DNA of 64,000 nt from Selaginella moellendorffii (GCF_000143415.4 NW_003314266.1:890463-954462), one strand, 5' to 3'; shown: positions 20,380 to 64,000, numbered from the stretch's first letter. The notes: generated by a model not told the origin, from the letters alone. Numbers and translations: made by a program.

Positions 20380-20389
20380 AGAGATGCCC

Positions 20390-20462: not shown

Positions 20463-20484
20463 TCTAGAGATGAAAAATGCCCAT

Positions 20485-37889: not shown

Positions 37890-37957
37890 GCTCTTCGCAA
37901 GAAAGTGAGGAGCCCAAAGCCCTAAATAAAATAATGTGAGGATTTAGGGTTTATGCA

Positions 37958-39595: not shown

Positions 39596-39627
39596 AAAGG
39601 GCGAGCTCACGCTTAAGGGTATGAACG

Positions 39628-40000: not shown

Positions 40001-40157
40001 GAGTTTGTCACCATGGTTTTGCGCTTCTAGTTGTTTGGAAACTAAGAGCCGATCCGGGGTTCGAACCCATGAAGAGGGACCCTATTTTTTTTTCGCTGAG
40101 ATTCGACCGTGTCACGTCTTCGTACTTGGAAAAAAATTCTATGATTCAAATAGCATT

Positions 40158-40380
40158 TTTAGGGTTTATGGGATCGGGCAGAGGATCGCCAATGCGCCAG
40201 GTATCTCTCCATCGGCTGCTAGAGCCAGGCCGAGATACTCGCCATTGAGAAATCTCTGTTTCTACAAGGCGAAATTCTTGTCCTCGGGAGCCTGGGAAAA
40301 TCGAACAGGTTTTCACTTGCAACGATCTCCATCGACGTTAGCATCCAGGATGCCCATTTCCTCTTCCGGAGCCATATGAG
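40158..40380 (+). pseudogene. Collapsed relic of the 5' end of the PPR gene at 37958
   Basis: Shares tttagggtttatg, gatcgccaatgcg..ccaggtatctctcca, ggccgagata, gagaaatc, aacaggttt..acttgcaac and gagcca(c/t)atga blocks, in order, with 37942-38346. Confidence 0.75.
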
Positions 40381-40448
40381 GGACGTCCACGGACGCATTC
40401 CTCGTCGTCGTCGGAGCTTCGTTACTGCTTTAACAGGCCCAAGATGCA

Positions 40449-42719: not shown

Positions 42720-42888
42720 TCATTCTCGCATCGAAAGATACTGATTAGAGTGCTTTTGCAGTGAAAAAATCTCTTTTTTTCCGCTCATTTTTCTCGAAGC
42801 ACAAGTAAGAACACTTCCATGGTTTATTTTTCTTTGTTCTTGATGTATGTTTCTCAGGGTTTAGGGTCTAAGGCGCGTGGCATGGACA

Positions 42889-44739
42889 ATGATCTTCTCC
42901 CGCCTGCATTTTGCTGTCTCTAAATGGAGATGGTTCTCTAAGCTGCGACCCCATTTCCAGCGACCAAGGAGTAGTAGACTTCCTTTCGCGATCGTAGCGG
43001 TGAGAGAATCACACACACAGCCCTTGAGTGGCCTTTGCAGCAGCAGTACCAGCAACAGTAGCAGCAAGCCGAAGAAGGAGACACTGTTCGCGATCTCCAT
43101 CGCTGAGACAGTTTCCAGGTCGGGCACTTCGATGGAGAGCATAGAGGCGGCGCTGAGATGGTTCCAAGGTACTCCCAGCAACAGCTTGGTGGGAGTGGTG
43201 CTCAAGAACATCCAGGAGCCGGACAGTGCGTGGTTCTTCTTCCAGTGGGCGAGGAGGAAGGCCGGTTTCAGGCACAACACTTACACCTGGAACGTCCTGC
43301 TGAGCGTGTTCGTGAGGGAAAAGAGGCACGCCGAGGCGAGACAGATGATGGACGAGCAGATGCTCCACGACTGCTTTCCGGACGTGGTGACTTTCACCAC
43401 GCTCATGACGGGTTACTCGAGAGCCGGGGAGATGCGAGCTTGTGTGGAACTTATGGAGGAGTATTGGGCCAGGAACACGGACAAGCCCCCGACTGCTCAG
43501 ATGTACAACGTCCTGCTCAATGGTTTCTTCAACGCGGGGATGTTTGGAGAGGCTCTGGTCCAGTTCGAGAAGATGGTGCAAGTGTGCCGGCCGACGCTGG
43601 TGACTTACAACACGCTGGTTACGGGGCTGTCCAAGTCGGGCATGGTGAGAGACGCGCTCGGGATGCTCGAGTTCATGATCGAGTCGGGGCTTTCACCGGA
43701 CGTGATCACTTTCAACTCGGTGCTCGACGGGCTGTGCAAGGAGCAGCGGATACTCGACGCGCACAACGTTTTCAAGCGGGCTCTGGAGAGGGGGTGCCGG
43801 CCGAACGTTGTCACTTACAGCACCTTGATCGACGGGCTGTCGAAGATGGCGAAGATGGACGAGGCGTTGCAGCTCCTGGCGAAGATGGTGGAGCTGGGCT
43901 GCCGCGCAAACACGGTGACTTACTCCACGGTCGTGGACGGGCTGCTCAAAGTCGGGAGAATGGAGGACGCGGTCGTGGTTCTCAGGCAGATGAGGGACGC
44001 CGGGTGCTTGCCGGACGCGGTGACTTACAACACTCTCATCGATGGATTCTTCAAGCGGCAGAGGCTGCGGGAGGCCGTCGGTTTACTCCGCGAGATGCTC
44101 GAGGCCGGGTTCCATCCCAGCGTTGTGACTTACACCACGCTGTGCCACGGGCTTTGCCGGAGCGGCCGCTTCGACGAGGCTGTGGAGATCCTCGACTACA
44201 TGGCTGCTCGAGGCTGCGCTCCCAACGCCATCACTTACAGCTCCATCGTCGACGGACTGTGCAAGGCCGGGAGAGTGACCGAGGCGCTGGGATACTTCGA
44301 AAAGATGGCGCGGGACGAGGTGGTGGCTCCTCACGTCATAGCTTACTCGGCGCTCATCGACGGGCTCTGCAAAGCTGGCAAGATCGACGAGGCGTACGAG
44401 TTCCTCGAGCGGATGATCCGAGCGGGCCGGATCCCGGACGTGGTGACTTTCAGCATTCTCATCAATGGGCTGTGCGACGCCGGGCGGATCGACACGGGGC
44501 TGGAGCTCTTCCGTGGCATGGCCGAGCGAGGCTGCGTCCCGGACATGGTGACGTACGCTACTCTCGTCGACAGGCTTTGCCGAGCTAGCAGAGTGGACGA
44601 AGCTTTCGATCTCTTCCAGCAAATGAGGAGCGATGGATTGTCGCCGGATAGATCGACTCGGAGAACTATGATCCATGGCCTTCTCGAGGTGAACAGGGAC
44701 GAAGACGCGAAGAGAATCCAAGACGAAGAGAACTCTTGA
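42889..44739 (+). CDS. P-class pentatricopeptide repeat protein
   Basis: Tandem PPR array, FFQWARRKAGFRH motif; first in-frame ATG at 42889. Confidence 0.97.
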   Translation: MIFSRLHFAVSKWRWFSKLRPHFQRPRSSRLPFAIVAVRESHTQPLSGLCSSSTSNSSSKPKKETLFAISIAETVSRSGTSMESIEAALRWFQGTPSNSLVGVVLKNIQEPDSAWFFFQWARRKAGFRHNTYTWNVLLSVFVREKRHAEARQMMDEQMLHDCFPDVVTFTTLMTGYSRAGEMRACVELMEEYWARNTDKPPTAQMYNVLLNGFFNAGMFGEALVQFEKMVQVCRPTLVTYNTLVTGLSKSGMVRDALGMLEFMIESGLSPDVITFNSVLDGLCKEQRILDAHNVFKRALERGCRPNVVTYSTLIDGLSKMAKMDEALQLLAKMVELGCRANTVTYSTVVDGLLKVGRMEDAVVVLRQMRDAGCLPDAVTYNTLIDGFFKRQRLREAVGLLREMLEAGFHPSVVTYTTLCHGLCRSGRFDEAVEILDYMAARGCAPNAITYSSIVDGLCKAGRVTEALGYFEKMARDEVVAPHVIAYSALIDGLCKAGKIDEAYEFLERMIRAGRIPDVVTFSILINGLCDAGRIDTGLELFRGMAERGCVPDMVTYATLVDRLCRASRVDEAFDLFQQMRSDGLSPDRSTRRTMIHGLLEVNRDEDAKRIQDEENS

Positions 44740-44888
44740 TTACGACGAAAACAGTTATAAGTTCGAATCCGGGCATCGACAATGATAAGATCGCGCGTTC
44801 GAATCCGGGCACGTACAAATCATCGTGTCGGAGTTTCGACTCCTGTCCGCGACGGTATGGGTTTTAGGGTTCTTGGTTTTGAGCTCCA

Positions 44889-46865
44889 ATGATCCGGCAA
44901 TGGCGGCAATGCCGCTCGCCATTCCGCGTCTCCTACCCGTATTCCAATCCGGGCCACGTCCAGTCCCTGCTCGGCATCCTCGACAATGCGCCCGGCAGCA
45001 GCGGCGGCAGCGATCTCGCGGCGCTCCTCAACTCGAGGTACGATCCCGGCGTTATCATCACCAAGGACACGCTGCGTGTCGTCCTTCGCGAGGTGAAATC
45101 CGCGGAGCTTGCGAAGCAGCTCTTTGATTGGGCTGCTACCAGGCCGCACTTCAGCCACAACAATCTCACTCGCAATGCGCTGCTCTTCGCGACGATTCGG
45201 GGGGGACAGATCGAGCAGGCCCGCGAGATTTTCAAGGGCATTGTTGAGAAGAAGGCCGATATCTATGCGTACAATGCCATGATCAATGCCTACTGCTTGA
45301 AAGGAGAGTTTTCCGCGGCCTATGCGTTGCTGGAAGAGATGAAAACGCACGGGATTGCCAAGAACACCGTCACACACGGGATAGTGATCAAGGCGCTGTG
45401 TGGCAATGACCGGATAGACGAGGCTGTGAGTTACTTTCACTCCATTCCCGAGGACTGCCGGGACGAGATCTCGTATAACACTTTGATCACTAGCCTGGTG
45501 GCTTCCAGGCGGTCCGAGCAGGCCTTGGAGCTTCTTCGGGCGATGGTAGCCGATGGAGGAAGCCCGGATGCTTGCAACTACATGACCGTGATGGATGGGC
45601 TCTTCAAAGCTGGCTCTCCAGAGGTGGCGGCGAAGTTATTCCAGGAGATGCGCTCCAGGGGCCACTCGCCAGACTTGAGAACGTACACCATCATGATCTC
45701 GGGGCTGTCCAAGGCCAAGCAGCTGCCACTGGCTTGCGACTACTTTGAGGAGATGCTACGCAAGAATCTCAAGCCGGACGCCATCGTATACTCGAGCTTG
45801 ATCGATGCGTTTTGCAAGGCCGACAAGGTGGACGACGCATGGAAGCTTTTGCGTTCTAGTGGGATCGAGCCAACCATAACCATGTACAGCACGATGGTCG
45901 ACTCGCTCTGCAAGAACAGGGGGACGGACAAGGCTCTCGAGGTCATCCGGGAGATGAAGAGCAAGAACTGCGAACCGGGGATCCACATATGGACGTCGCT
46001 GGCGACGGCTTATGTGGCCGAAGGACGGGTGGACGAGGCTCTGAAGCTTGTGAATGACCTCGAGTGTGATCCGGACGTGATCTTCTACAGCAGGCTCATT
46101 GGCGTGCTCTACGACACCGGCAGAAGCGACGAGGCTCTCAACATCTTCAACACCATGGTCGAGAAAGGCCTCGCTCCAGACGGTCAGACTTACTCGACGA
46201 TCGTCCACTGCTTCTGCAAGCAAGGCAACATGCGGGCCGCGTCGAAGTTCGCTGCGCTGATGCACGGGACTGGCGTGAAGATGGAGCCTATCGTCTATGG
46301 CATGCTCATGGACGGCTACTTCCGGGAGTGCAACATGGAAGAGGCTCTCAAAACTTACGAGGTGATGCTCTCCAAAGGCGTGCGTCCCAATCCAGTGATC
46401 TACAACATTCTGGTCGGCGGGCTTTGCAAGATGAGGAGGCTGGAGCATGCCACCGAGGTCTTTCGGGAGATGCAAGAGAAGGATGGCATCGTTCCCTCCG
46501 CCAAGAGTTACAGCATTCTCATCCACGGAGCTGCAAAGGCGAGGGAGGTGGAAAAGGTGCTGGATCTTCTGACGGAGATGATCGACAACGGCGTCATTCC
46601 AAACCACATGACTTACACGAGCGTCATCTCCGCTCTCGGCAAGGCTGGCCGCCTGAGCGAGGCGAAGGATGTGTTCCAGGACATGGTGAAGATGGGCCTG
46701 GTGCAAGATGCTCCTGCGTATGGTGCTCTCATCAACGAGCTTTGCAAGAGGTCGAGCTTGGGCGAGGCATGGGACTTGCTTCAGGACATGATGGACAGTG
46801 GCTGCGCGCCGGACAAGAAGGTCTACAAGTCATTTTACCGGGCAGTGAGCAAGAGGGAGCAGTGA
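44889..46865 (+). CDS. P-class pentatricopeptide repeat protein
   Basis: Tandem PPR array, LFDWAATRPHFSH motif. Confidence 0.96.
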   Translation: MIRQWRQCRSPFRVSYPYSNPGHVQSLLGILDNAPGSSGGSDLAALLNSRYDPGVIITKDTLRVVLREVKSAELAKQLFDWAATRPHFSHNNLTRNALLFATIRGGQIEQAREIFKGIVEKKADIYAYNAMINAYCLKGEFSAAYALLEEMKTHGIAKNTVTHGIVIKALCGNDRIDEAVSYFHSIPEDCRDEISYNTLITSLVASRRSEQALELLRAMVADGGSPDACNYMTVMDGLFKAGSPEVAAKLFQEMRSRGHSPDLRTYTIMISGLSKAKQLPLACDYFEEMLRKNLKPDAIVYSSLIDAFCKADKVDDAWKLLRSSGIEPTITMYSTMVDSLCKNRGTDKALEVIREMKSKNCEPGIHIWTSLATAYVAEGRVDEALKLVNDLECDPDVIFYSRLIGVLYDTGRSDEALNIFNTMVEKGLAPDGQTYSTIVHCFCKQGNMRAASKFAALMHGTGVKMEPIVYGMLMDGYFRECNMEEALKTYEVMLSKGVRPNPVIYNILVGGLCKMRRLEHATEVFREMQEKDGIVPSAKSYSILIHGAAKAREVEKVLDLLTEMIDNGVIPNHMTYTSVISALGKAGRLSEAKDVFQDMVKMGLVQDAPAYGALINELCKRSSLGEAWDLLQDMMDSGCAPDKKVYKSFYRAVSKREQ

Positions 46866-47534
46866 GCATCTCGGCGGCTTTGCAAAGCGTTTTCGAGCTT
46901 CGTCGAGCTTGAAGGTGAGCTGAAGATCTCCAGGTTCCTCAGGTAACGGGATAATAGAAATCGCTTCTTCAAATCATCCACATGTTTCCATGTCCTTTTC
47001 TCAGGCGAAACTGTGGCGATGAACGAGGAGTGTGTCGCCTCATTCTTTCCCTACGTTCCGGAGGCCGAGATTGAGAACGATACGACAGACTCTTCCTATC
47101 CATCGAGGTCGAAAGTAAGTGAGAGTAAGCTGGTTTTCTTCAAGCAAAGACCAGAGAACGAGATTTATGTAAAGCAAGCGCAGGTATGAATTGGAATCCA
47201 AACTAGAGAAGTTAAAAATTATGTAGAGCAAGCCAGGTAAGACCAGGTATGGAATTGTCGATCATTTGTTCTCTCTCTATTGGAATCCAAACTTTGCAGA
47301 GAATACACACGAGATGAAAGGAAGTTACGTTATGCAGAATGACCATAAACTCCACCACTCTTGCTCGTCCATCCTGGGGTCCTGGATCTCACGTTCTCAC
47401 CAAGTACACACTTGATGTATCAAATTAATTGATAGAAAGATTATTGGGAAGGCACAAAGATTTTGCAGAATTATTATTGTTTCTCAAACTTTCTATACAA
47501 CCATTGCATCTTAATGTAAATTAAACTTTTATAG

Positions 47535-48425
47535 TTAGCAAGATTTTACATCTGTTCCCCACATTCTTTTGATAACTGGATATTTTGAGAATCTGTGTTG
47601 GGTAGATTCATATAATACTAAATTACAGCTATTTTGAAGTGATAAAAATGTGTTCATCATGCAATTTTTATATTTGCAATATGTATTTGGAGACCATATA
47701 GCTATTTTGTTTCCAGAATAAAATACTAAATTTCCATCTAGTTGTATTCTTAATTGACATCCACTATCATTTTCGTATCCTTTCTTAGACCATTTTTCAA
47801 TATTATAAATATAAAGTACTAATCTACAATTTATATGTAAATATAAAATTGCTTTTTGATTTGGTGATACTAAGAATTCAGTAGACTTCAAGTAATAATA
47901 GGGCATAATACTTATTAATGTAGTAAGATAAATTTTACAAACATTTAAGGAATTTAGTTTAGGAAATAGTAATTGGGGATTATGATTTTTGTAATTTGTA
48001 ATAGTATATTGAATAGCATAATACTCGAGTACCATAGTAAAAAATGATGCACATAATCTTTCTAAAGTATTTCGATGGGATCTTAATAAGGCAGTTAAAT
48101 ATCTTTTAACATTATCTCCATCATCATATTCAGGATCCTCTTGATCAGCTACACATAAAGGAAAAGATTTTCCTTTTGAACCATAAATCCACATTTCAGT
48201 AAAAATATTTAATTTTCCATAAATATCATCTTCTAATGTAAATTGAAAATTCATACTTTGACCTTTAGGTAATTCTCCAGAAGATATATTATCAATCATT
48301 AAATCCATTGCATAAGTAATTAATTTAGCACTTTCTTTTGACATTGCATTTTCTTCTCCATGTTCTATTTGTGAGTTAATAGTACCAAAAAAATATAAAT
48401 TAATTAACATAAATATAATTCTCAT
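47535..48425 (-). CDS. Secreted protein: unknown N-terminal domain + C-terminal bulb-type (GNA) lectin domain
   Basis: Signal-like MRIIFMLINLYFFGTINS; lectin subdomains HINCRLVLY, QLDGNLVFY..AIWSPNT and QNSCNLVLY. Strongly AT-rich and intronless. Confidence 0.7.
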   Translation of the reverse strand: MRIIFMLINLYFFGTINSQIEHGEENAMSKESAKLITYAMDLMIDNISSGELPKGQSMNFQFTLEDDIYGKLNIFTEMWIYGSKGKSFPLCVADQEDPEYDDGDNVKRYLTALLRSHRNTLERLCASFFTMVLEYYAIQYTITNYKNHNPQLLFPKLNSLNVCKIYLTTLISIMPYYYLKSTEFLVSPNQKAILYLHINCRLVLYIYNIEKWSKKGYENDSGCQLRIQLDGNLVFYSGNKIAIWSPNTYCKYKNCMMNTFLSLQNSCNLVLYESTQHRFSKYPVIKRMWGTDVKSC

Positions 48426-49645
48426 TTTTATTTTAAATAAAAATAAATAATAGTTAGTATAAAATCTATTTTTAAAAAAATAATAATATTTTTGTACTTT
48501 ACATTGAATCTAAAAAAAGCCTAGTAAATTTAAAAGAATGGCAAGTAAGTATTGATTAGATATTAATAATATATGTTTATGAGTTTATTTCTTTTGAACA
48601 AATGGCACTTCTCTTCTCTCTAGGCACTAAATGCCAAAGAGCTGGAATGGCAACTTCTCAAGTGAATATCAATCATCTCTCATTCTCTTTATCCTAATTG
48701 TTGATTTTCAGCCACCCTCAAGCTATAATACATCATTCACATTGTTTTAGCACATTTGTAGTAATCCTATATTTATTAATTTGGGAAATTCTACTAAATT
48801 TGAGACTTAAAGGAATCTTTTGAAAAATAAGAATAAGAATATTTTTAGAATATTCTTAAAATTAATGAAGTATATTAAGTTTCAGCAAAGCTTTTTAACT
48901 AAAGCTCTACTCCCATAGATCTTACCAAAGCACAACAAACATTAAAAATGAAAATATATATTATTGTCAATTTGACATCCATTTAATAGCCTCTTGGAAA
49001 TGCTTTGGGTGAAATAGCCAACCACTATATTCATATATAAAAATGAATAAAATTACCAAAATATTTATCAATCATTTTGGAATCTATTACTTCTAATGAA
49101 GATATGAAAGAATTTTAGATTAATGTAGTAAATATTTACTTTTAAGAAAAATCATTGTCAACTAAAGTATAATTTTTTTACTTCATAATCTTATATCACC
49201 TGTTAAAATAATTAATTATAGAATGAATGTTTTTCCAAAATAAAAAAAATTACCTAATTTCTAATTTTAAACTATGTGCTACACCTTCAATAGCAAACTT
49301 TAGAGGAGTAACTGTATGTGCATATTGTTTATAAAACCAACCAAAAACAATACTTTCAAGTGAGATAGTCATTTGAGGATCTTTTAGATTCAATTTTCAT
49401 TTCTTTTCCCACCACCTTATATATTATTGATTTTCTAATTGATTATATGGGCCACATAGGATATACTATTGAAATTTGACTTATGTAATACCATATGTAA
49501 GTTTTGAATTTTCCACACATCTTCCTAACTATATTGGATATGTATCATCTACTAGCTGAACAAATACATCATATCCTTCAGTAATTTCAGAGATGGTAAA
49601 ATATTTTTGAGGTAGTTGATTTTTTTGACCAACATAATGAGGTAT

Positions 49646-51300
49646 TATAGTGCATGTGATTTTCACCTTTTATCTTATGATGATTTACCATAAAATAACC
49701 ATGTTAAACCCTTTATATGCCACATGTCACATGCCACGTGCCACATGCCATATGTCTTTAAAGACAGTGGAGTTTTAAAGCCTTGGGCCACTAAATGAAA
49801 GAATGGAGCTAAACTCCTGTCGCAAATATAACTTCGGATATCGAAAGTTATCTGTCGGTTGTCCTTTTGGATATTCTTTTCTTACTGCCACGACAACAAA
49901 AGGTCGATATTGCTGGATCCTTTATTAATCTCCCCCTAAACTAGTTAAGAAACTGGTCATCACATATGCACTTAAACCAAAAGGGCACTAAGGAAGGAAA
50001 TCCTAAGTTGTTATTTATCAAGCAGACTTGACATGGTGATGAAAAACTCATGATGTTGACTTACACTTGCTAGTGTTGCGAACCCCCGCGATATTGGGTT
50101 TGGTCCTTTAATATTCGCTAAATGATAGCTTACCGTGTCTACCAAACACCCTCGCTATCAAACACCTTGTGTTAGTACCATTCGGTTTCAATTACTATTT
50201 ATGAAAAGTGTCTAGATTTACTAGTTTGGCATATCAACGGAATGTAGAGATTGTCTTGAACACAATGGTGTTCGTCTTGTGTCCAAATTCACAATCTAGG
50301 GATATTCCATATTTAATAAGTTTCAAACTTGTCCCAAAAACTAACTCCTTGTACTGAGGGTGGCTAAAGGTGAAAGCCCAAAGCATGTGTTCCTTGAGGG
50401 GGGGGGGGGGAGGGGGGTGGCTGTGGGAGGGTTCCAAATGTATAATAGGGATAATAGGTAGATTGAGTATGGTTGACCAACTTAAGACATAATTTAGTTC
50501 CCGCTTGTATGCCTATCCTTGTTTTGCGTCCGGCTTGGGTCTAACCCAAGTTGCATACCATGCTAGTTGGTGAAGTACCCATATCCTCACGTTAAGCCAC
50601 CGGTATGCTGAAATAGCACTAAATTCCGTTTAGCTCCATTTTATGTGCTAGTCCTAGCATTGGGATGTTAGTTGCTCTAGAATTGTTTCAAGTCACTCTA
50701 TGCTCCTGTCCCTTTGCTCCTTGGGTTGTACGCTCATAAGTTGTTTCGTGCTCTAGTGCCATCACTCCTTAGCTCTTTGCTAAGAGTTTGGCTTCGTTCC
50801 TTCATTCAATGGCCCAAGGCCTTGAAATCTGGGTTCCGCACCACTGTCCTTTGGACACGTGGTATGTGGCATGTGGCACATGGAGGGTTTAGATTTTGCT
50901 TCATGGTGATCCTATAATAAATCATTATAGGATAAAGGGTAAAAACCACGTGCATTACAAGTCCCTAGCTTACAGCCAAGGAACAAAGGGACTGAAGTGC
51001 GAAACAACGTTTAAGCATTCAGCCCAAAGAGTGAAGAGACAAAAACATGAAGCAATATAGGAATAGTCTTAGAGCATTAAGCATCCCAATGCTAGGACCA
51101 ATATGCAAAATAGAGCTAAATGAACCACCATTTTAGCATACCGGTGGCCTAACGCGAGGATATAGGTACTTTACTAGCTAGTATAGTGAAACTTGGGCTT
51201 AAACACAAGCCAAATGCAGAACAATGACAGACACACAAGTGAGAGTTAAACTATAGCTTAAGTTGGTCAGCCATTCCCTACCTACTTACTATCTCTCGGG
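49646..51300. mobile_element. Nested LTR-retroelement remnants: insertion 49818-50959 inside an oppositely oriented same-family LTR
   Basis: 49646-49817 is the reverse complement of about 50785-50959; about 50960-51295 is the reverse complement of about 50440-50730. The insertion has TG..CA ends, TSD actcc/agtcc and a G-run PPT at about 50397-50417. Confidence 0.75.
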
Positions 51301-51331
51301 AGAAGCGCAGCAAGTAACGTATACCTAGCTC

Positions 51332-52057
51332 NNNNNNNNNNNNNNNNNNNNNNNNNNNNNNNNNNNNNNNNNNNNNNNNNNNNNNNNNNNNNNNNNNNNN
51401 NNNNNNNNNNNNNNNNNNNNNNNNNNNNNNNNNNNNNNNNNNNNNNNNNNNNNNNNNNNNNNNNNNNNNNNNNNNNNNNNNNNNNNNNNNNNNNNNNNNN
51501 NNNNNNNNNNNNNNNNNNNNNNNNNNNNNNNNNNNNNNNNNNNNNNNNNNNNNNNNNNNNNNNNNNNNNNNNNNNNNNNNNNNNNNNNNNNNNNNNNNNN
51601 NNNNNNNNNNNNNNNNNNNNNNNNNNNNNNNNNNNNNNNNNNNNNNNNNNNNNNNNNNNNNNNNNNNNNNNNNNNNNNNNNNNNNNNNNNNNNNNNNNNN
51701 NNNNNNNNNNNNNNNNNNNNNNNNNNNNNNNNNNNNNNNNNNNNNNNNNNNNNNNNNNNNNNNNNNNNNNNNNNNNNNNNNNNNNNNNNNNNNNNNNNNN
51801 NNNNNNNNNNNNNNNNNNNNNNNNNNNNNNNNNNNNNNNNNNNNNNNNNNNNNNNNNNNNNNNNNNNNNNNNNNNNNNNNNNNNNNNNNNNNNNNNNNNN
51901 NNNNNNNNNNNNNNNNNNNNNNNNNNNNNNNNNNNNNNNNNNNNNNNNNNNNNNNNNNNNNNNNNNNNNNNNNNNNNNNNNNNNNNNNNNNNNNNNNNNN
52001 NNNNNNNNNNNNNNNNNNNNNNNNNNNNNNNNNNNNNNNNNNNNNNNNNNNNNNNNN
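51332..52057. other. Assembly gap (726 N)
   Basis: Run of N. Confidence 1.
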
Positions 52058-52507: not shown

Positions 52508-52953
52508 ACTTAAGCTCTATTTCGTTAAAGTGGGAATTGTCATTATCCCATTTGTAAAATAAGGTTTCCAAACCTTTATATAGTATATAAATATAACAAA
52601 ATTCAACTGCATTGAGGCACATGCCATTTTATTTTAAACAAGGAAATGTCTACTCAATCACTTCTCCTCCCCCTGCCACTGCTTCACCTCTCTCTTCTCC
52701 TTGTCATCGTCGTCCAATTTCTTTCCATCCTTTTAATATTGGCTCAGTTGCTCCGAGTCTAGGTGGAGCCCAAGTCCCCATTCAATCTTTACTTTCCCCT
52801 TATTAATAAAACAACTTCGTAGATTTCCAATAACATGCTGTAACACTTCTAGTATAATGCAAATCCTCTCAAAGAATTGTCTTTTAATATTAATACAATG
52901 GCATGGAACCCCATGCCATAATAAGTTACATTTTAAAATAAATACATGCCATC

Positions 52954-55900
52954 TCAGACTGTTATTTTTTGCCTCCAACGCCTATACAATAATCTTGGAA
53001 TTTCATCACTCTCCACACTATCAGGATTTAAACCCAATAGTAATGCCATCTCTTCTCTAATACGTCCACGCTCATGTTCAGTGGTCGAAGAACCCATCTG
53101 GTTGAGCAGATTATGGAGATGCGGATAGTGCTTGGCTAGACAATATACATGCCATAAATGATGACTGGTGTCTGTCCGATCAAATGGCTTCTGATATATC
53201 GTTCCATCTGCCATTTGGTTGATTTCTGCAGCCACCTCCTGGACTGGCCGGTTCTCTATCACCATCGCTTCAAGCCGTTTTGCAAGGTCCCCCAGAATAT
53301 ACGGTTTCTTCTCCCTAGTTTCCATACTGCAAGAGATGGGGTGCACTGCATATGTGTGCGTGTTCGTTGCAGTTTTAATCGGCAAGTCATCGATGATGAG
53401 GATTTCACTTGACCTAGCAGTCCGGTTCATCACTATAGCCTCTGGCTTGACGAAGATGGGCTTGCTACCCCTCACATGGACCATAGTCAAGCAATCCTCC
53501 TACGTTAGGAGAAAGTCAAATGGTAATATTACTCGCGTCTGATCGTGCATCATCTGTAGCAACGTTAATGCATTGTGGCGCATCATGGATGTCCAAACTC
53601 CCAATTGCAAATTGAACCCGGCCCTCTGTTTTAAGTGTCGCATGGTCATTATTAGATCCCGCAGTTTCTTCCGTGTGATTAATGTGAATCTGTCTCTTTT
53701 GACCAACTTGCGACCGCAGGCTTTGGAGGGTGCAGTGACATTCGAGGATGAGCCACGCTCATGGGAGAAAAGGACACCGTTCAGATCAAAAACGATACAG
53801 TACTTTCGCCGTGACTCTGAAATGAAATGCGTCAGCATAAAAAATGGTACAAGTCAATTTTACCATCTACAATATTAGCGAATGGTGCTCCCGATGGTCG
53901 TTCAGAGGGTTTTGGTCGAGGAAACGTGAAGGGCGGAAATACTCTCCTCTGCAATGTGGGGTCAATCGCATCCGATGGCGTGTGGGCACATGCCATTTCA
54001 GCTGTAGACTCTGGTACAACTGGCTCAACAGTGGCATGGGGTGGTTCCGATGGCGTGTGATCACACGCCATTTCAGCTGGTGCCTCCGTTGGCAAAGTGG
54101 ACATGACCGAACAGGCAGCAGGGGCGGTGTAGGGAGGTTCCAACGGCGCGTAGTCAGACGATTGGGCACACGTTGAGTCCGTTGGAAATGAGGATACGAC
54201 CGGCTCGGCGGCTGGGGCGGCCTTATGCGGGTCCAATGGCGCCTGGTCACCGTCAGTTGGATACGTGGACAAGATTGACTCAGTGGTATGGGCAGCATCA
54301 AGTGGAGCGTGGTCAGCTTGCTTGCCGTTGATATGGATAGTAGCCTCCACCAGCTCTGATGACGCTTGCAGGCAAGTAGAGTCCACTGGCGGATCCATAT
54401 GCATGTCCAAATATCTCCCTTCGATTGAGATAGTATCCTCCCTACTGGCTACTAAAAACAAACTCATTAGCATATTGAATCGACTATACTGTATTTACCA
54501 TCAACTACTATTGGGCGCACTGCTGATTCTGAAGGATTGGACATACGTTTCGACCCTTGCTTGGCACTATCCTTCCTCGACACTAAAGGCTAGAGTTTGT
54601 ATCTTAATTCAACTGAATAATCTCTACTTACCATTTCTTCTGCGACCTACATGGACAATGTTAGAAATGGTAAAAGGTTAGGAATGGATGTACTATTATT
54701 TACCTAATGGTTTGTCTTGTATGACCTTCCTCCGCTGCTCTTTGGCCACCTCAGGCTGGCCATCGTCGTCATCATCGTCATCGTCGTTATTGTGATTGTC
54801 ACCATTGTGAGGACCATCCAAGTCCTCTTCGTCCTCCTCTTCTTCGTCCTCCTCTTCTTTGTCCTCCTCTTCGTCCTTCTGCTCTTCCTGCTCATTATCT
54901 TTCTCTGGCTCCTCATCCCCCTCCTGCATTTCTTCCATAGGCTGCTCAGGCTGGATGGCTTGTTTTTCCAGGACCATCTTGGGAAAATCATCTGGCCGAG
55001 TCTCCATCTCAAAATACAAGACATCCATAGCCTGTTTCAATGCTTGACCTAGGACCGTATCCTCACCCGACTGTCTTAACATGGTTTCTACACGTTCTTG
55101 CACCCTTCGAAGATGACGAGATGAGAAAAACGTGGCCCTGACTTGAAAAGCATCCCTCATCCATTGTACCTCTCCATTGAGATTGGGGAAGGGGAGTCCG
55201 CCATAGGAATCTGAGTCAGGAGGTGGTGACTGGCTCCTTTCACTCAGCCCTTGATTTGCAATGAATGGCATGAGCACACACGCCATAACCGCGAGGCATT
55301 ACCTATCATCTTTTCGTTGCCCTTCTTCCTTTTCGAATCAAACGCCTCTGATCCCGACGACTGTCCAACGTGCTTTCGCTTTTTATGACCACTGTCAGTT
55401 TGAGCTTGGCTGGTGCTTGCCTGTTTTGCCTTTGAAGAAGTGTCTCCTGCAAGGAATGGCATGAGACCACACGCCATTGCAAATATAATTTGTACCTCCT
55501 TTTTTCCTATTGCTTGTCTGTTTGTCCTTCTTCGACGCGCCACCAATGCGCTTTTCAGTCCTCGTGTCTGAATATTCACAACGATCTATAATCAAAATGG
55601 CGTGAGGCCTCACGTGACCTTACCTTGTGCAGGTTGTGAGCTCGGCCTAACATCAGTAGCTGTTAACGCCGTTTCAGCATCTGGGGGTGGCCACGCTCCT
55701 GCATACAGAGCTTGTGAGATAACATTTAAACTTAAAGTGCGTACTCACCAGGTTCGCAGAGAAGATACTGTTTTTCTTTGGCAACTGTAATTATATGCTC
55801 CATTGAAGTCACCTCTTCAATGGAGTTTATCACCGCAACACACGGGACACCCTTGAGTAGTGCGGCTCGAAAGAATAGTCCGCCGCAGTTGTACTCGACA

Positions 55901-58531
55901 ACACATTTGCCCTTGGTGTCACCCGCTATTGCATTGAAGACCCAGCTAAGCATTTCCCATGCTGCACCTGGAGCTTTCTTTGGATTCGAAAGCTCCATAG
56001 CCGTCTTCAGTTCCTCAGGCACGGGTAAATTGACCTCCCTCAGATCAATTCGATCGGCCTTGTCGAACGAAGCTGGGAAGTCACTCCAGTCCCACTCTGC
56101 TGCAGGACCAATAACAAGGGCGAGTGTGAAGATGCGGACATTCGTCGGTATCTTCTTCTTAGCCATTATCCCATGGATCTCCCGCATCTCCTTGCCTTTC
56201 AACCGAGCCTTCACCTCGTTCAAGGCCTTCCAGAACTTGTGATAGGATTCGGAGTCGTAGATCATATAGTGGACTGAAGATTCCACCTCCGCAAGTCCCA
56301 CCATTAAGTCAATGATGGAGCTGACTTCGTCTGCATGAGTGATCTCTTCGTTTGTGAAGTCCATCACACAAAAGATGCTCTTGACCTGCTCATCTCCGCG
56401 GGAAACGATGCTCCTCCACCTTTGATCCTCATCCGAATTCACGTATACCTGGTAAGGTTCTCGATAGGCCTCTGCTGCGGGGTCGAGCTGTTTCTGAAGC
56501 CGGCGGTCGACATCCCTCTTAATGAAATTTGGATACTGATCCAACTTCTCAACTTTACTTTTCGTGGCATCCCGCAGCAGATCGATGAACTTGGGGGCCC
56601 CCTTCACGTACTCGTCGATGTCTTCATTTGACAACTCCAGCTCTTCCATCATCTCTTGCGTGGTGTCGATGCTCACCCTCTCCACGGCCACTTGCTCGAA
56701 GATCCAATCCTTCAATAGCGCACGAGCTCTCAGAGTCATGCACAAGTCCTCGTATGTCACAATATGGCCGGGAGTCATTTTGGTCTTGTTGAAGACTACC
56801 TCACCACGTAGAAGAGCATTAGCCACTGCCAGAAGGTCGTCGTCGTCTAGAGACCGCGAGAAACGCAAGGTGTTGAGCTTCAAATCATTGGGCTTCCGAC
56901 CGTCCTCCACACCCATTGAGTTTAGCAACTCCCCGTCATGGTACCTCCTCAGCACATCTACCCATTTGTCAAAAACAACTTTTGTCGCGAGTAGAATGTT
57001 ATGGATGCTGAGTGTGTCATTGACCCCCAGTGTTTTCGAGAGAAGACTCGAGAATTCCTGCAATGGAAATGGCGTGAGGCCACATGCTATGCCACATGCA
57101 ACGAGGCTTACCTGCCAGGCGCTAGTTGCTAGTGCACGTCCTTGTCCTGGTTTTTGTGGCTTCTTCAGTTGAACCCAGAGCTTCCGTGTTCGTGCCAATG
57201 TCTCGTGCAGACCCGATTTGTAGCACGTTTCTTGCTTGACATTCTGCGCGTGGGAGATGGATATGATAGATCGGAGGGGCGAGTTGCCTTTTATCAGGCG
57301 GACAACTCTTGTCTTGAAGACTTTCTTCACCTCCTCGCCCACCATAATATCCAGAACTATCTCTTGCATCGCCAAGCTAGAATGCTGCCCGGAGACGGCA
57401 TAGAACCGGATGTTTTGATCGTCCAACACCTTCCTATTGATCAAGTTGGAAACCTCGTCTCGCCCTTCATTGTTTGGTAGTAGGGGATCACGTCTGCGAT
57501 GTCGGGTGTTACTGGACTTGCCAGCATCTTCTGCTTCAGTTTCTCCACCCACTCATCAGATACTAGCCTGTGGTTGTATTTGCTTTGGATGTCGATATGG
57601 CTCACGTCGATTGTATATACTTTGTTGGAATAGTAGCAAGTACTATTATCTGCGACGATTTTTGCTGCCTCTTCTTGCTCTTTCTGCTCTTTGCGGCTCT
57701 TCTTTTTGGTGGGTGTAGTGTTCGAACCCGAGGCAATGGCATCACCGAATAGCTTCTTTTTTGGAGCAGCAAAGTCGGACGTCGGCTTGAGCTTGACCAC
57801 CCTTTTCTGCTTCGGGGTAGTTTCCAGATCGACCCCCTTCCCCTTCGCTTCGCGAACTGGAGGCACTCTCAACGGCTCAATGTTGGAATATAGTTTTTGA
57901 ACATCGCCGTAGGTGAGGTCCGTGGATTCCATGTGATCTTCATAGACCCGCAGCGTCTTTGAAATTGTGGGCCTCCTGGACAACCTCTCCCTAGCTCCCT
58001 CTAGGAATTCCTCATACCCGCTGCCCCCCTCCGGGAAGCCGCTAGGATGTGCAAGGTGGATCTTGAAGGCGGACGCTGTCTCTACCACAAGTGCCAGTCC
58101 ATATTCTTGCATGGAACTGCATGGAGTGTCTGTCACTTGGATGAGGATCCCCATGCATTCTTTTCTCCCACCATCTGTGTTGTACAGCATCAGATCCTCG
58201 CCTTCCATCCCGAAAGTCCAACTGGTGAGCTCCTCCCCCTTTTCTGCATCCACATTGACAGTGGCTGGAAGAAGAATGCAATTCCTCGCCTGTTCAGAAA
58301 TGCACAACAATTAGAGCTGACAGATGAAAAGCTAGCAGCTGGAAATAACGTGAGGCCACACGCCATTCACCACTGCATCAGATGTCTTGAGGCTGCATCC
58401 TAAGATGGCGTGAGGCTACACGCCATCTGTAACCGGACTGCACTCGAGAGCCCAATCGGTGCATGCCAATGTTGCTACTGAATGGCATGTGGCCTCATGC
58501 CATTTTCTACTTGGCCTAAAAGACTTACCAT
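52954..58531 (-). CDS. Transposon cargo gene (about 1,600 aa, about 11 exons): ParB/Srx-like domain + degenerate beta-class N6/N4 methyltransferase fold + acidic linker + FCP1/NIF HAD domain; carries one frameshift and one in-frame stop
   Basis: ATG at 58531 with intron 58528-58290. Phase-consistent GT-AG introns join track ORFs 57441..58310, 55732..57552, 55244..55579, 54696..55286, 53832..54473, 53500..53838 and 52954..53490. Motifs: IDVSHIDIQSKYNHRLVSDEWVEKLKQKM..FYAVSGQHSSLA; NPKK..KCVVEYNCGGLFFRAALLKGVPCVAV; VFDLNGVL..GVWTSM..LIIDDLPIK. Frameshift at about 57450; TAG at 53502-53500. Confidence 0.7.
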
Positions 58532-58759
58532 TTGAAGCCGAATGGAGGCCGTGACAATCGAGGCCGGACTCGCTGGCGAATGTGCACTGTGTGTGCAGCG
58601 GATCGTAGCAGCAAGGCTACTCTGCCACTTATAGTTGGAGAGTGGCGCTGAAATCTCCCGGGATGCCAAGTGGGCTGCGTGTGGGTGGCGGAGTGGGCGG
58701 CGGAGTTGGCGGCGAAGTTACAAACTGGGTGTGTCTTGAAGTGGACGCTGATGCACACA

Positions 58760-58930
58760 AGCGCGATGCGAGCGCGAGTGTGATGCAAGCACGAGTGGAC
58801 GCCGATGCACACGAGAAACCTGTAGAGAAGTGAGCGTGATCGCGAGTGGGAGCGCGATGCGAGCGGGAGCACGAGTGTGATGCGAGCGCGAGCGCGAGTG
58901 TGATGCGAGCGCGAGCGCGAGTGTGCGAGT
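58760..58930. repeat. CpG-rich microsatellite (gcgagcgcgagtgtgat)n upstream of the cargo gene
   Basis: Reiterated gcgagc/gcgagt units. Confidence 0.8.
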
Positions 58931-59249
58931 GAGAGTATGAAGCAAAATGTAAAACCTAACCTCACACGCGCGAAATGTCACAACGGTTGGTAATCCCGCC
59001 ACGTCATCATTCCTCGGACTTGGGCGCCACCATTAATTTTTGGATTGCCGCGCGCATGCAAGCACGCAAAATCCAAAAGAAATCCGCAACGTCATCATTC
59101 CTCGGACTGCATGCACGCGAAATCCAAAAGAAAGATCATGATTGGGATATCATTTAATACCCTCGCTATATTTATACCATGCATGATTGGATATTCCAAA
59201 GCATCTTGTATTTCCAAAAATGGCAGATGTTCAGCTAAATAAAGAAATT

Positions 59250-60605
59250 CTATCTGTTTCTATTTTTCTCTCAAATCAATATTATAGCGTGTGGGCTCAT
59301 GCAATTTTGAACCAAAGAAACCCAAAAAACGTTGGACCCAAAATATTTTGAAAAAACCCAAAAAACCCTAAACATTTTAAACCCAAAAATCCAGGCGTCA
59401 TGTGGCGTTATTCCTTGAATGGCGTGTGGGCGCATGCCATTTTTAGGGCCAAATGCTGAATGGAGAAAAATTCCCTTTCAGTGCAAATGCTGCAAGAGGC
59501 AGATGCCGAGCACAAAGGACTGTAACTACCTCACATGACACAGATAAACTTTTCTCTATTTGGCAAAGATAAACTTTATAGCGTGTGGGCTCATGCAATT
59601 TTGAACCCAAAAAATGCACCAAAAAATTCTCGGCGTCATCTGGCGTTATCTCTTGAATGGCGTGGGGCCGCATGTCATTTTCAAGGGCACATAGGAGTAT
59701 ATTCCTAGGATATTCTGACACGCGCGAGATTTTTTTGAGTTTTCTGGAGATCCAACCGTTAGATCGCAACTAGATTTTACAGAATGGTATACAATATCTT
59801 TCTTGATGACCCTGCAAAGAAGCATCTCGATCGGACACCACATGAGACCACACGAGCCTTACAATGTTTCAGGGGCATTTGCCATAGATCCAACCGTTAT
59901 TTTGCTCCAAGATTTTACAGTTTGGTGTGCATTGACCTTTCCATCGACACTGCAAAGGGACATCACAATCAGATGCGAGATCACAAGAAACTAACTTCAC
60001 TAACTCTGGTTTCACCAAGATCTACGTAAGGAGTTATGAAATGAAAGGACCCTCTCTATTGAAATGTGTTTATGGTCCTAGGGGCATTGTGACATATCAA
60101 AGGATTTTGCATCAAGTTTTGTATTTGCATGTTTATCAAGCTACTGAATTGCTAAACCCTAAACCCTAAACATGTGGCAAATGCTGCGTGAAGAAAGATG
60201 CCCTTTCTGGGCAAATGCTGTAAGAGGCAGATGCCGAGCAGATGTATCTCAGGCTAGCGAAGGGGACAAACAAAAGCTAGCTATAAACATGACAGAATGC
60301 AAATAGATTACTAGGCTGGTCCTGCGAAAATCAAAAACCATAATTGAAAACATTGAAAATGCAAAAAGAAAGGTTTATAATATTTTTGAATTTTAAGCAA
60401 CCAAAGGAATGTAAGTAGGGCATGTGTTTGTAAGTTTAAAAATGCCTCAACCACTTAAATTCCCAAGTAAATAAAGCTGTTTCTATTTTTGGTACAGGTA
60501 AACTTTATAGCGTGTGGGCTCATGCAATTTTGAACCCAAAAATGCACCAAAAAATGCTCGACTAGCATTATTCTTTGAATGGCGTGTGGCCTTATATTGC
60601 CATAA
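59250..60605. repeat. Three diverged direct repeats (about 120-190 bp), each carrying a pair of palindromes
   Basis: ttctattt..ttatagcgtgtgggctcatgcaattttgaacc at about 59257, 59552 and 60481, each followed by ttgaatggcgtg. Confidence 0.85.
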
Positions 60606-60959
60606 ATGGACGTACACACAGAGCATAATTATTCCTTTACACGGCGAATAATCTTGGCGCGGATCGCTGACATGGCATGGCAAAGTTCAAATCACTGACA
60701 TGGCACAGCTGGATCGAGGCAAGGACATGATGTGACAAAGTTCAACCTCCGACAGCAAAGTCTAGAAGCTACTCAGTTTGAAATTTGTCAGAGGAGTCAT
60801 AAGATCTGGTTTGTCAGAGGATTTGATGTGACATTCAAGCGTGTGTTATTTTTGAATTCTCGAACTCATTCCTAGGTCTATCATTTTTGTGCGCCGTGTT
60901 CTTGGTTCCGCTGAGCGCAGTGAGCACTGCTTGTGTAAGCGGCGTTGTGGGCTGTGGTT

Positions 60960-61100
60960 TATGCGTCTACGAGCGGTTGCGGCATTGCGAGCGCCATTGC
61001 GAGCGGTAGTTTATGCGAGTGGCAGTTTGTGCGAGCGGCGCTACGAGCAGTTGCGGTGTTGCGAGCGGCGCTACGAGTAGTTGCGGTGTTGCGAGCAGCA
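60960..61100. repeat. CpG-rich 30-bp minisatellite upstream of the transposase
   Basis: gcgagcggcgctacgag(c/t)agttgcggtgtt repeated. Confidence 0.8.
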
Positions 61101-61465
61101 CTGTCTTTGGTGTGGCTACCGCTTCCTCTTGATATTCGGCACTTGTGCTTCCTGGTATGTTCACCATGGAATGGCTTAGGACCACATTTAGAAATGGCAT
61201 GAGGCCACATGCCATCTTGGGCCCTTGCAATTTCATGGCTAGCATATTGTCATGTATGTTTTTACTTGCCTGCAGCTGTGTGTATATCAAGATGGCATGA
61301 GGCCTCATGCCAATTTTGTGAATGCAAAATTTCACGTGGGTGTCAATAGCATGTTTGAATAATGGCATGTGGCCTCATGCTATTGAGGTTGTTTGGTATG
61401 TTATGATTTAAGCCATTCTCCAATCATTTTTTGTATGGTCTTAACTTCTTTTCTGCACTTTCAGA

Positions 61466-64000
61466 ATGGCCTTCAGGGTTGGGGAAAAGGTTTACATTTT
61501 GAATGGTGGGAAGAGAGTTGCAAAAGGGACCCTTGTGTCTATGGATCGGAACTTTGTTATACACTGTCAAAGGCTTGGGGAAGGCAATGTTGCTGTATCA
61601 ATAGAGACTGTCTTCGATGGGAATGTGGTCGCTATTGAACGAGGAGAGATGGTCGTCGGGGTAAATGTTGTTGTTGCCTTGAAAAATCTTCAGAAGAAAG
61701 CAGATGTTGGGGACAGCACAAGTGCGACGCATGTTCCCTCCGTGGATCTTAAGAACCGTGCTACATGGATTCAGGCGAAGGTGTTTCTAAACAACCCCGA
61801 GGGGGAGGTGGTAGCTGAGGGCTTAGCCACAGTTGTCGATCCAAAAGATGCGGTTGCTAATCAAGAATTGGGCTGGGATGATATTGGAGTTGCGATTTTA
61901 GAGGTTGTTGACACAGAAGAAAACAGTTTGACTATTGGAAGCATTGTGCGGTGGAAATTGAGGCACTTAGTGTTTGAGAATGTGAAGGATTCACAATCAA
62001 ACACCACTACAACTGATGACAGAACATCTCTTCATGGGAAAAGAAAGTACACCTTCCTAAAGCGCAGCCAAAGGGATCTGAGCAACGAACCGAAAAGGCA
62101 GAAAATGGCGATGGAGGTTCGAATGGTCTCGACAGTTGCTTGTTGCAAGAGGAGGTGCTGTCAACATGCTGATTGGGATGCTATTGAAGAGGAGAGAGCA
62201 AGATACAAGACATTGTCCTGGAAGGCAGCTCGCAATTTTGTGTATGAGGCATTACGGTCATCTGTTGATGCTTCAGAACATCAGGTGGGGGGCATGGTCT
62301 TCCAGAGGGGTTTGGTCTGCATGAAGGCATGGAGAATCATTTATGGAGTCCCTCGAACCACATTCTACAGAATCAAAACTGAGTTCGAAGAACAAAGGGT
62401 TCAACAGGCAGTCCATGGGAACGACAGTACGCACAAAACCAGGGGTCATGTTGTATATGGAGAGGCAATCTTCAAGAGGTTTGTCGAGACATGTAGCGAG
62501 CAGCAACCACATAAAACCCGCCTCTTGGAAGATGGAACACGAGACACCCAACGAGTTCTCCCTTCCATGTATACCAAGGGGGCCATATTGGAAGATGTGA
62601 ATCGGGAACTCCAGAGTAATGGCTACCGGAAGCTGAGCCAATCTAGATTTAGTAGATTGTGGAGCAACAAGTTCAGGGATGTGAGTATAGGAAAGTACTC
62701 CAGCTTTTCAAAGTGTGACAAGTGCACTGCTATCAAAATGGCTTTGTCGAAGAATTCTTGCAGCGCTCAAGAGCGAGAGACGTTGGTTAGAAGGCGGCTC
62801 GACCACAACATCGAGCAGAGAAGCTGCAGGACTGCATATTATCATAACAGGATTCTCTCCATGGAGAGACCTGACTCTTACCTCTGCATCATCCACGACA
62901 AAATGGACCAGAAAAAGACGTGCTTACCTCGACTCAATCCTGCCCCCAAGGCAATCTCTTCATCCATGCAGCTGCCTGTGTCTATGTTTGGCATAATCAC
63001 TCATGGGCATAGTGCCCAGAACTATGGGAACTTCTTTGTACCTCTATGGGGTGGTGGGGGTGCAAACATGATGATTGCGTCCCTAGCAAAACATTTAAGG
63101 TCTCTGCAAAGTGCGCAGACTGAGCTGAACGGCCAACCCTTGCATAAGGCCCTTGTCGATCGAACCCCATACAGGGTTCAGCTGGAGGAGGAGCAAAGGC
63201 TTGCAGTATCGCGTGGGGCCCCATGCCATCCCAGTGAATATGTTGGCCGTCAGATTGTAGGGTTATCACGTGAGGCCTCATGCCATTCCGATGAGGTTGG
63301 TCGCTCAGTGAATGCACAGCCTCATCCAAACGAAGCAGAATCTCAAGGAAGTTCTTGCGGCCGATGTGGCCTTCCACCCCATCTTCTGCTCCAAACAGAC
63401 AATGCTGGCAGTGAGAACAAAAACATGTACGTCTTCGCGTACTTGGCGATGCTTGTTGCCAAAGGCATATTTGAAACGGTTACACTTGGCTTTCTCATGG
63501 TTGGGCACACTCATGAAGACATCGATGCCATGTTCAGTCACCTGGCAGAGTCCCTCTGGCGATCCAATGTCCTCACCCTCCCACAACTCTACGATGAATT
63601 CCAAAATTGCATCAAAGGCACTGTTGAAGCTGCACTTCTGACAGAGGTTCCAGACTTTAAGGGGTTTGTAAGAGGCTACATCAGGGACGGATCCGAAACG
63701 CTGATTGGCCACTCCAAGCCTCTTCAGTTTCATTTCAGCATGTGTGACGGTGCTCCAGTGATGAGGTACAAGATGAGAGAATGGGACACAGTGTGGCTGC
63801 CAGTGGACGGCATTGAACTCTTCAAGAGAGATCCCATAACTGGGGAACCTATGATTCCTCAGGGTTCCCCACGGCCGATGCACCCGGATGGACTCAAAGA
63901 CCAGAAAAGTATAGTGGCCGGGATTAGACAGCATATTGCCTTCTGGAAGAGGGGGTTGGTGTTTGGTGGAGAATCCTATTTTCAGAGGTGCAAGCCTTTG
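61466..64000 (+). CDS. DUF7869/Sola1-like DDD transposase with two N-terminal Tnp1/En/Spm-like domains (845 codons, 3'-incomplete)
   Basis: Uninterrupted frame from ATG 61466 (after a ttttctgcactttcag acceptor) to the window end. Motifs: CCKRRCC, VCMKAWRIIYGV, FSKCDKC, IIHDKMDQ, LLLQTDNAGSENKN, FLMVGHTHEDIDAMFS. Confidence 0.9.
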   Translation, partial: MAFRVGEKVYILNGGKRVAKGTLVSMDRNFVIHCQRLGEGNVAVSIETVFDGNVVAIERGEMVVGVNVVVALKNLQKKADVGDSTSATHVPSVDLKNRATWIQAKVFLNNPEGEVVAEGLATVVDPKDAVANQELGWDDIGVAILEVVDTEENSLTIGSIVRWKLRHLVFENVKDSQSNTTTTDDRTSLHGKRKYTFLKRSQRDLSNEPKRQKMAMEVRMVSTVACCKRRCCQHADWDAIEEERARYKTLSWKAARNFVYEALRSSVDASEHQVGGMVFQRGLVCMKAWRIIYGVPRTTFYRIKTEFEEQRVQQAVHGNDSTHKTRGHVVYGEAIFKRFVETCSEQQPHKTRLLEDGTRDTQRVLPSMYTKGAILEDVNRELQSNGYRKLSQSRFSRLWSNKFRDVSIGKYSSFSKCDKCTAIKMALSKNSCSAQERETLVRRRLDHNIEQRSCRTAYYHNRILSMERPDSYLCIIHDKMDQKKTCLPRLNPAPKAISSSMQLPVSMFGIITHGHSAQNYGNFFVPLWGGGGANMMIASLAKHLRSLQSAQTELNGQPLHKALVDRTPYRVQLEEEQRLAVSRGAPCHPSEYVGRQIVGLSREASCHSDEVGRSVNAQPHPNEAESQGSSCGRCGLPPHLLLQTDNAGSENKNMYVFAYLAMLVAKGIFETVTLGFLMVGHTHEDIDAMFSHLAESLWRSNVLTLPQLYDEFQNCIKGTVEAALLTEVPDFKGFVRGYIRDGSETLIGHSKPLQFHFSMCDGAPVMRYKMREWDTVWLPVDGIELFKRDPITGEPMIPQGSPRPMHPDGLKDQKSIVAGIRQHIAFWKRGLVFGGESYFQRCKPL

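Follow-up and report, generated by a model that had tools for sequence, protein, structure and literature searches.

Introduction

In the brown alga Ectocarpus, the 21.5-kb transposon Sola1-1_Ec32, which has a 4-bp target-site duplication, carries an opposite-strand gene whose 1,104-residue product joins a ParB-like part to an N4C/N6A methylase (PMC12477816). Its authors propose that this accessory protein binds and modifies its own element, predict that the methylase makes N4-methylcytosine (4mC) or N6-methyladenine (6mA), and cite similar proteins of green and red algae (PMC12477816). Here we describe a gene of comparable layout in a 64,000-nucleotide stretch of the lycophyte Selaginella moellendorffii (GCF_000143415.4 NW_003314266.1:890463-954462; hereafter the window, numbered from its first letter). 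A large, presumably Sola-like DNA transposon that is highly repeated in a land plant carries this accessory gene (52954..58531, minus strand) as its second gene, and the copy found here is broken. In intact copies, a single helper of about 1,630 residues may bind 20-base palindromes of the element and help to sustain its expression or mobility in the face of host methylation, a reading built on sequence, predicted structure and analogy to which we give an even chance.

The layout of Sola1-1_Ec32 is found again in the window: in an element of at least 11.5 kb, a second gene lies opposite a DDE transposase of a giant, presumably Sola-like transposon and encodes a candidate ParB-like part with a predicted methylase fold. 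Unlike the algal gene, that of the window belongs to a land plant, encodes 1,631 amino acids (aa), has lost the catalytic motifs and has an added NIF domain, and the two are likened by layout. The available passages on the brown algal element mention neither a NIF domain nor a palindrome array (PMC12477816). The genes PAG2 and PAG3 of red algal Plavaka elements include one for a ParB-like protein (a weak HHpred match, E 0.29) beside inverted repeats; their cassette resembles the window in its ParB-like accessory protein, a candidate assignment here, near inverted repeats and in its PF01555-type methylase, but it goes with an EnSpm/Plavaka transposase, has ParB-2OG oxygenase and methylase-SET as separate genes, and shows tandem repeats where those of the window are dispersed (bioRxiv 10.1101/2025.02.11.637652).

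More distant parallels exist for the single parts. The phage ParB-methyltransferase fusions L005, L006, L008 and L010 likewise place ParB_N ahead of a beta-class methylase. However, these proteins of about 420 aa keep DPPY, DPFxGSG and GHxR intact and lack the 240-residue helical insert, the linker and the NIF domain, and no significant sequence match was found between them and the window protein. VANDAL elements are Mutator-type transposons. In Arabidopsis, VANC21 occupies the introns and intergenic DNA of its VANDAL element, and the element in the window resembles this system: in both, a plant DNA transposon carries an accessory gene, and short motifs gather in its introns and between its genes (PMC5735166). 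VANC is nonetheless an unrelated protein with experimentally shown activity, so the window gene is a functional analogue only (PMC5735166). A beta-class fold in a eukaryote is also known from bdelloid N4CMT and Marchantia DN4MT1, but these enzymes are active, have SPPY and belong to the host, not to a transposon, and the passages searched mention no ParB part (PMC8885841, bioRxiv 10.1101/2021.02.12.428880). DIRS1 retrotransposons likewise keep a catalytically dead amino-methylase in a mobile element, although theirs is PCIF1-derived, belongs to another structural group and lies within a retrotransposon polyprotein (PMC4738411).

A model-made note on this stretch (the sequence-only reading) had proposed a prokaryote-type module repurposed as an element-bound protein. 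That idea has a close algal precedent in print, which makes it less novel. New relative to the algal reports are the land plant, the degenerate methylase motifs and the added NIF domain; our literature searches, with most subscription papers and Repbase outside their scope, returned no land-plant description of a ParB-methylase transposon gene.

Results

The accessory gene faces a probable Sola-like transposase in a highly repeated element

The accessory gene stands head-to-head with a divergent open reading frame (ORF) 2.9 kb away (61466..64000, plus strand), which comprises 844 codons, remains open past the window end and matches DUF7869 with E 1.3e-41. Its candidate catalytic motifs, on the same strand, are HDKMDQ at 62894, TDNAGSENKN at 63395 and GHTHEDID at 63503, which we take to have the DDE role. 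DUF7869 together with a GHTxxxxD motif is presumably of Sola1 type. The Sola superfamily is characterized by terminal inverted repeats (TIRs) and a 4-bp target duplication. In a by-eye comparison with part of the Sola2 alignment, the Sola2 motifs DFxENY, SDGxxxQYKN and FFATSHGK were unmatched, the window having HDKMDQ, TDNAGSENKN and FLMVGHTHED. The start of the transposase (61466-61630) also gives a weak match to Transposase_23 (En/Spm TNP1; E 0.089). Between the two genes, AAACCCTA occurs twice, at 59363 and 60154; we take it to be a plant telomere-type telo-box.

Both genes lie in a high-depth repeat whose window portion spans 52512..64000 (at least 11.5 kb) and whose right end is beyond the window. 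Summed contig depth across the accessory gene reaches 55,000-101,000 in public run X2 and 670,000-850,000 in X1, against 20-144 (X2) and 21-955 (X1) over the flank 46500-49348; it is level over both genes and about a thousandfold above the left flank, a measure that does not give copy number. On the left, a contig of run X14 continues for 240 unlike bases beyond 52512, and the left end of the element was not located; no TIR partner for this region was found within the 64-kb window. A second high-depth repeat (49756-51331), with nested inverted arms at 50447-51296, adjoins a gap of N bases (51332-52057). Since 50217 is joined to 52511 in one X1 contig, part of this repeat may belong to the left end of the element.

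A palindrome array runs through both genes

Twenty palindromes of the form TGGCRTG-N6-CAYGCCA, with at most two mismatches, are distributed from 52899 to 63285. Eight are intergenic, seven lie in introns 1, 2, 4, 5 and 6 of the accessory gene, one is behind this gene, two are in its exon 10 and two in the transposase ORF. Between 52058 and 64000, these 20 compare with an average of 0.17 across 100 Markov controls and with two in the first 51 kb; the whole window contains 22, against 0.56 in controls. The spacing is equally sharp, as a 6-base spacer gives 20 palindromes and any other spacer from 2 to 10 at most two. Density is far higher in introns (7 per 683 bases) than in coding sequence (2 per 4,895 bases). 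The intergenic palindromes are surrounded by short repeats (78-, 70- and 63-base families, 59242-60542), which suggests that the site spread via local duplication. Both exon-10 palindromes fall within a duplicated 75-base unit of this Pro-rich exon (53976-54070), and those of the transposase within an insertion-like stretch (63200-63330) between candidate catalytic motifs 1 and 2, where the frame stays open.

These sites may serve the transposase itself, the accessory protein being a partner that assembles or targets the transposition complex, with no silencing role. TnpA of En/Spm and the Myb protein of Harbinger are analogues of such a partner. This explanation, which we consider unlikely, fits a two-gene DDE element with eight palindromes just upstream of the transposase, and the abstract of a 2026 preprint reports sequence-specific activation by a transposase itself. 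On the other hand, the sites are dispersed through introns across 11 kb and not only near one end, and in algal elements ParB-like proteins near inverted repeats are found repeatedly in company with transposases of other kinds (bioRxiv 10.1101/2025.02.11.637652).

The accessory gene is broken here and open in other copies

The sequence-only reading had spliced seven ORFs into one gene at this location. Seven ORFs of at least 100 codons are indeed present at 52954-58531, all on the minus strand, and every quoted motif occurs in the translation (NHRLVSDEW at aa 240, SGQHSSLA at aa 301, MDFTN at aa 626, EYNCGG at aa 782 and DLNGVL at aa 1355). Our model, inferred from sequence, has 11 exons and 1,631 codons: exons 1-4 at 58531-58529, 58289-57112, 57057-55749 and 55698-55624; exons 5-8 at 55585-55496, 55446-55303, 55249-54704 and 54646-54632; and exons 9-11 at 54582-54499, 54451-53864 and 53816-52954. 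Four of its small exons are absent from the seven ORFs. All ten introns are GT-AG with consistent phase (38-239 nt, most about 50 bases); the least secure points are the acceptor of intron 6 and the 38-nt intron 4. Not every join between the seven ORFs is an intron, however: two of the supposed junctions are lesions. As written, the coding sequence measures 4,895 nt and so lacks one base of a complete frame; its translation ends at codon 284, and the 1,631 residues are obtained with an X at each of the two breaks. Overall, the gene is real, but it belongs to a transposon and is broken in the present copy. The sequence-only reading had overlooked that this copy cannot make the protein, as well as the divergent transposase and the 20 palindromes. 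That the whole gene specifies one polypeptide is plausible.

The first lesion is a frameshift at 57446..57447 (minus strand), where the present copy has one base fewer than others. The extra base is found in 16 contigs of run X1, 11 of X3, 30 of X2, and one each of X4 and X14. GT/GC..AG pairs restoring the frame can be listed mechanically, and a hidden intron across the frameshift was ruled out, and is not needed, because other copies carry one more base there. The second lesion is a premature TAG at 53500..53502 (minus strand), inside the HAD domain, where other copies have a sense codon; in X1 a different base accounts for 403,798 of 405,583 summed depth, and X3 and X4 agree. A 5,260-nt contig of X4 spanning 53414-58625 contains neither lesion, and its other coding indels are of 24, 12, 15 and net 3 bases. 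As both lesions are open in other copies, the family has open copies and the present one has decayed. Copies are mostly 95-100% alike. Among the listed C-to-T type differences between the present copy and others, drawn from the best-supported 40 of 146 difference rows, 23 of 28 are in CG or CHG (8 CG, 15 CHG), compared with 34% of cytosines, a bias that fits host methylation.

Relatives of the protein occur in two lycophytes

Five of seven matches from the homologue search were kept, and those with names belong to Selaginella moellendorffii and Diphasiastrum complanatum, none being algal. The window protein is 22-28% identical to the Selaginella proteins, and relatives at 18-25% identity retain its domains. 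The two other matches, P0003 and P0004, were dropped as chance matches driven by repeats. A Diphasiastrum gene model, P0007, has a ParB-like half together with a NIF domain that keeps DxD (NIF pairwise E 2e-5 against the window), which supports the linkage of the two ends of the window protein. P0007 is itself a predicted gene and has no methylase part, and the Selaginella protein P0001 has neither end. Together with P0008-P0010, P0001 represents a set of Selaginella moellendorffii proteins of 379-451 residues that are encoded at two loci and consist of the helical and methylase-like parts alone; these are either truncated element remnants or a host-kept version. No relative was found in viral contigs and phages. 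Word-based searches with the window protein, and with P0007 8-120 among longer proteins, found no homologue; the same type of search with alignment A1 returned nothing and also missed its own members, so that it is weakly informative. A metagenome scan with P0011 retained one locus of 30 candidates, which was rejected as a glycosyltransferase region.

The relatives bear on whether the gene has any job for the element. It might be carried cargo, or two adjacent genes, intact only through the youth of the family. With copies mostly so alike, open frames need little selection, and the gene models of the homologues are partial. We nevertheless judge this quite unlikely, since the indels between copies keep the frame, palindromes lie in the accessory gene's own introns, the domains persist in the distant relatives, and the layout is matched in Ectocarpus (PMC12477816).

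The N-terminal part combines a candidate ParB-like segment with a helical domain

The candidate ParB/Srx-like segment (57241..57647, minus strand; aa ~216-351) contains YNHR, SGQHS and HAQN and is split by the frameshift. When its halves were searched apart, the sole PHROG match of the first half was the ParB-like family PHROG 1033 (E 0.11). A tblastn search against phages gave 14 matches, one of which (E 8) is within a ParB_N protein. P0007 has SGQHS in common with the window and is 25% identical over the second half of the segment; its residues 8-115 retrieved ten Atlas structure rows, five of them from DndB, ParB_N or GmrSD_N clusters and all below the naming bar. The nearest Atlas feature clusters of the same residues contain unnamed sponge and mollusc proteins and fungal DUF3723 (scores 0.82-0.84), possibly further eukaryotic ParB-like families. 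A half-domain model of the segment has a predicted local distance difference test (pLDDT) score below 55 and is unreliable. The ParB-like domain proposed earlier keeps the weak PHROG, tblastn and Atlas leads, whereas Pfam, NCBIfam and our own profile tests (see Discussion) did not bear it out. Helped by the published layout in algal elements, ParB/Srx ancestry appears rather probable. All 12 of the 12 phage ParB rows have the Arg of the nucleotide motif G(x)HxR / GQHR, where the window and P0007 have SGQHS; nucleotide hydrolysis is doubtful because this Arg is Ser.

The following helical domain (56461..57057, minus strand; aa ~394-593) is the best-conserved part among relatives. It matched no solved fold (best Z 5.3), which is not evidence of a new fold.

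A methyltransferase fold is predicted without its catalytic motifs

Residues 594-830 (55750..56460, minus strand) are predicted to adopt a beta-class amino-methyltransferase fold, with DFTN for DPPY and EYNCGG for DxFxGxG. In a structure search against 48,161 chains, the best 11 matches of the model were all amino-methyltransferases (Z 8.1-9.7, root-mean-square deviation (rmsd) 3.8-5.5, 161-204 aligned residues), the best matches comprising M.BceJIV, CcrM, M.MboII, M1.HpyAVI, TTHA0409, M.PvuII, type III Mod proteins, M.RsrI and bdelloid N4CMT, whose chain 8s9n_A aligned with Z 8.1 and rmsd 4.6 over 168 residues. In addition, the Atlas model of P0001 retrieved PF01555 in eight of ten rows, one meeting the naming bar and some in ParB_N fusions. 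In model and sequence, the strands at whose ends DPPY and DxFxGxG would be expected terminate in D627 and E782, respectively. Sequence profiles gave no such match: neither the window protein nor 13 aligned relatives matched PF01555 at the Pfam cut-off, and our own methylase profiles (from seven, then five sequences) scored the window no better than shuffles. PDB sequence searches gave no meaningful match. The beta-class fold and motif order claimed by the sequence-only reading are therefore backed by predicted structure and not by profiles.

The claimed replacement of both motifs holds, and it is common to the aligned relatives. At the motif IV position these have DSAN, DATT, DANS and DLRR; at motif I, EYNCGG in the window becomes EYGCGG in P0001 and DINTGG in P0011. 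Neither PPY nor FxGxG was found in any aligned relative covering these positions; the loss is thus old and not decay of the present copy. P0011 retains the P.K..I..LI..FT..G..V.D pattern of the C-terminal half. Overall, the model predicts a methyltransferase fold that has neither catalytic nor S-adenosylmethionine (SAM) motifs.

That the enzyme remains active through unusual motifs and marks the element with 4mC or 6mA, the activity put forward for the algal proteins, is in our estimate very unlikely. It would agree with the preserved fold and order, with the alignment of D627 to an Asp in the P0002/P0011, P0014 and P0006 groups, and with the acidic residue and two Gly that persist in motif I. 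However, Pro-Pro-aromatic is absent from the window protein and from every relative covering the position, and FxGxG is not kept. An acidic residue after the strand next to motif I has a role in methyltransferases, and it is absent from the window protein. In bdelloid N4CMT, mutation of SPPY to APPA abolishes activity (PMC8885841, bioRxiv 10.1101/2021.02.12.428880).

The C-terminal NIF domain follows a long acidic linker

Exons 4-10 (53817..55749, minus strand; aa ~827-1346) encode an acidic, Pro/Ser/Thr-rich linker that is likely disordered, judging by composition, and in which no family reached the Pfam cut-off. The NIF/HAD domain (53338..53802, minus strand) contains DLNGV, WTS and DDLPIK. 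As claimed for its DLNGVL-containing region, this last-exon domain, with X at the stop, matches PF03031 above the cut-off (23.8 bits against 21.8, E 3.9e-5). The first Asp, WTS and DDxPxK are kept, and Asn takes the place of the second Asp in DxDx(T/V). DxDx(T/V) is the motif of active C-terminal domain (CTD) phosphatases, its second Asp being the general acid in FCP/SCP enzymes. The earlier proposal, in which the protein would bring an active RNA polymerase II CTD phosphatase to the element, is highly improbable: although the above-threshold match, the kept motifs and the DxD of P0007 speak for it, DLNGV has no second Asp, neither NCBIfam FCP/SCP models nor solved CTD phosphatases matched, the DLNG-type NIF subgroup of plants and fungi is a separate group with its substrate unassigned, and nothing points to the CTD.

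Surroundings of the element

Plant nuclear genes lie to the left of the element: PPR genes, an F-box gene, RPN6 and a bromodomain gene. Four long tandem PPR ORFs occupy 37940-46865, with the F-box ORF (39625-40245) among them. The host genes at 10885-21981 and 47538-48509 comprise bromodomain, RPN6, DUF4460/4461 and weak B-lectin matches. A 144-base tandem repeat with a reverse transcriptase fragment (29146-29672 and 30565-31371) is probably a retroelement remnant.

Discussion

In the proposed helper, the ParB-like and helical regions, as a dimer, would read the two 7-base arms of the palindrome at their 6-base spacing, like ParB on inverted repeats. The methylase fold would write no mark and would instead grip DNA or flip a base. 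On its long acidic linker, the NIF domain may bind or act on a phosphorylated factor of chromatin or transcription. The result would be anti-silencing similar to that of VANC, achieved by unrelated means.

Several results weigh against this proposal. No splice junction was found among contigs of seven public runs aligned to the window, and run X20, whose RNA origin is a guess, yielded unspliced pieces that are uninformative on expression. In the deep runs X1, X2 and X3, just 16-37% of summed depth carries the extra base at 57446 (100% in X4 and X14), and X2 has more single-base losses, at about 20%, which are unlisted in X1 of the same sample. Given the parts absent from P0007 and P0001, none of the homologues unites the three domains, nor could any be assigned a neighbouring transposase. 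The ParB-like segment matched no Pfam or NCBIfam family; 325 of 500 shuffles scored as well against our own ParB hidden Markov model (from 12 phage proteins), hhalign against phage ParB gave a probability of 1.9%, and in a ParB block test 118 of 300 shuffles were as good. The exon 3 structure model was built from 8 sequences and has a mean pLDDT of 61, with residues 285-374 below 50. In the structure search used, Z values of 7-8 are frequent by chance and the first unrelated match, at Z 8.1, comes directly after the 11 methyltransferases; Foldseek with the methylase-domain model gave no match at E 0.001. Finally, the palindromes could be transposase sites, as discussed above.

A bolder form of the anti-silencing reading, which we regard as rather improbable, is a transposon-encoded machine of seed-free land plants assembled from phage-type parts: a ParB-like clamp would load at parS-like palindromes and spread, a disarmed amino-methylase would shield bases from the host's CG/CHG methylases or flip them, and a NIF phosphatase would be tethered alongside. 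If true, plants would possess a second sequence-specific system of anti-silencing, of independent origin, which would be a likely reason for the size of the family and could become a programmable tool.

For the algal ParB-methylase helpers, binding or marking of their own DNA has so far only been proposed, and the window case extends the layout to land plants. The loss of the methylase motifs in every aligned relative, with the fold seemingly kept, argues that the useful job is DNA recognition and not methylation. With a sharp 20-base candidate site and many near-identical copies, the idea is directly testable.

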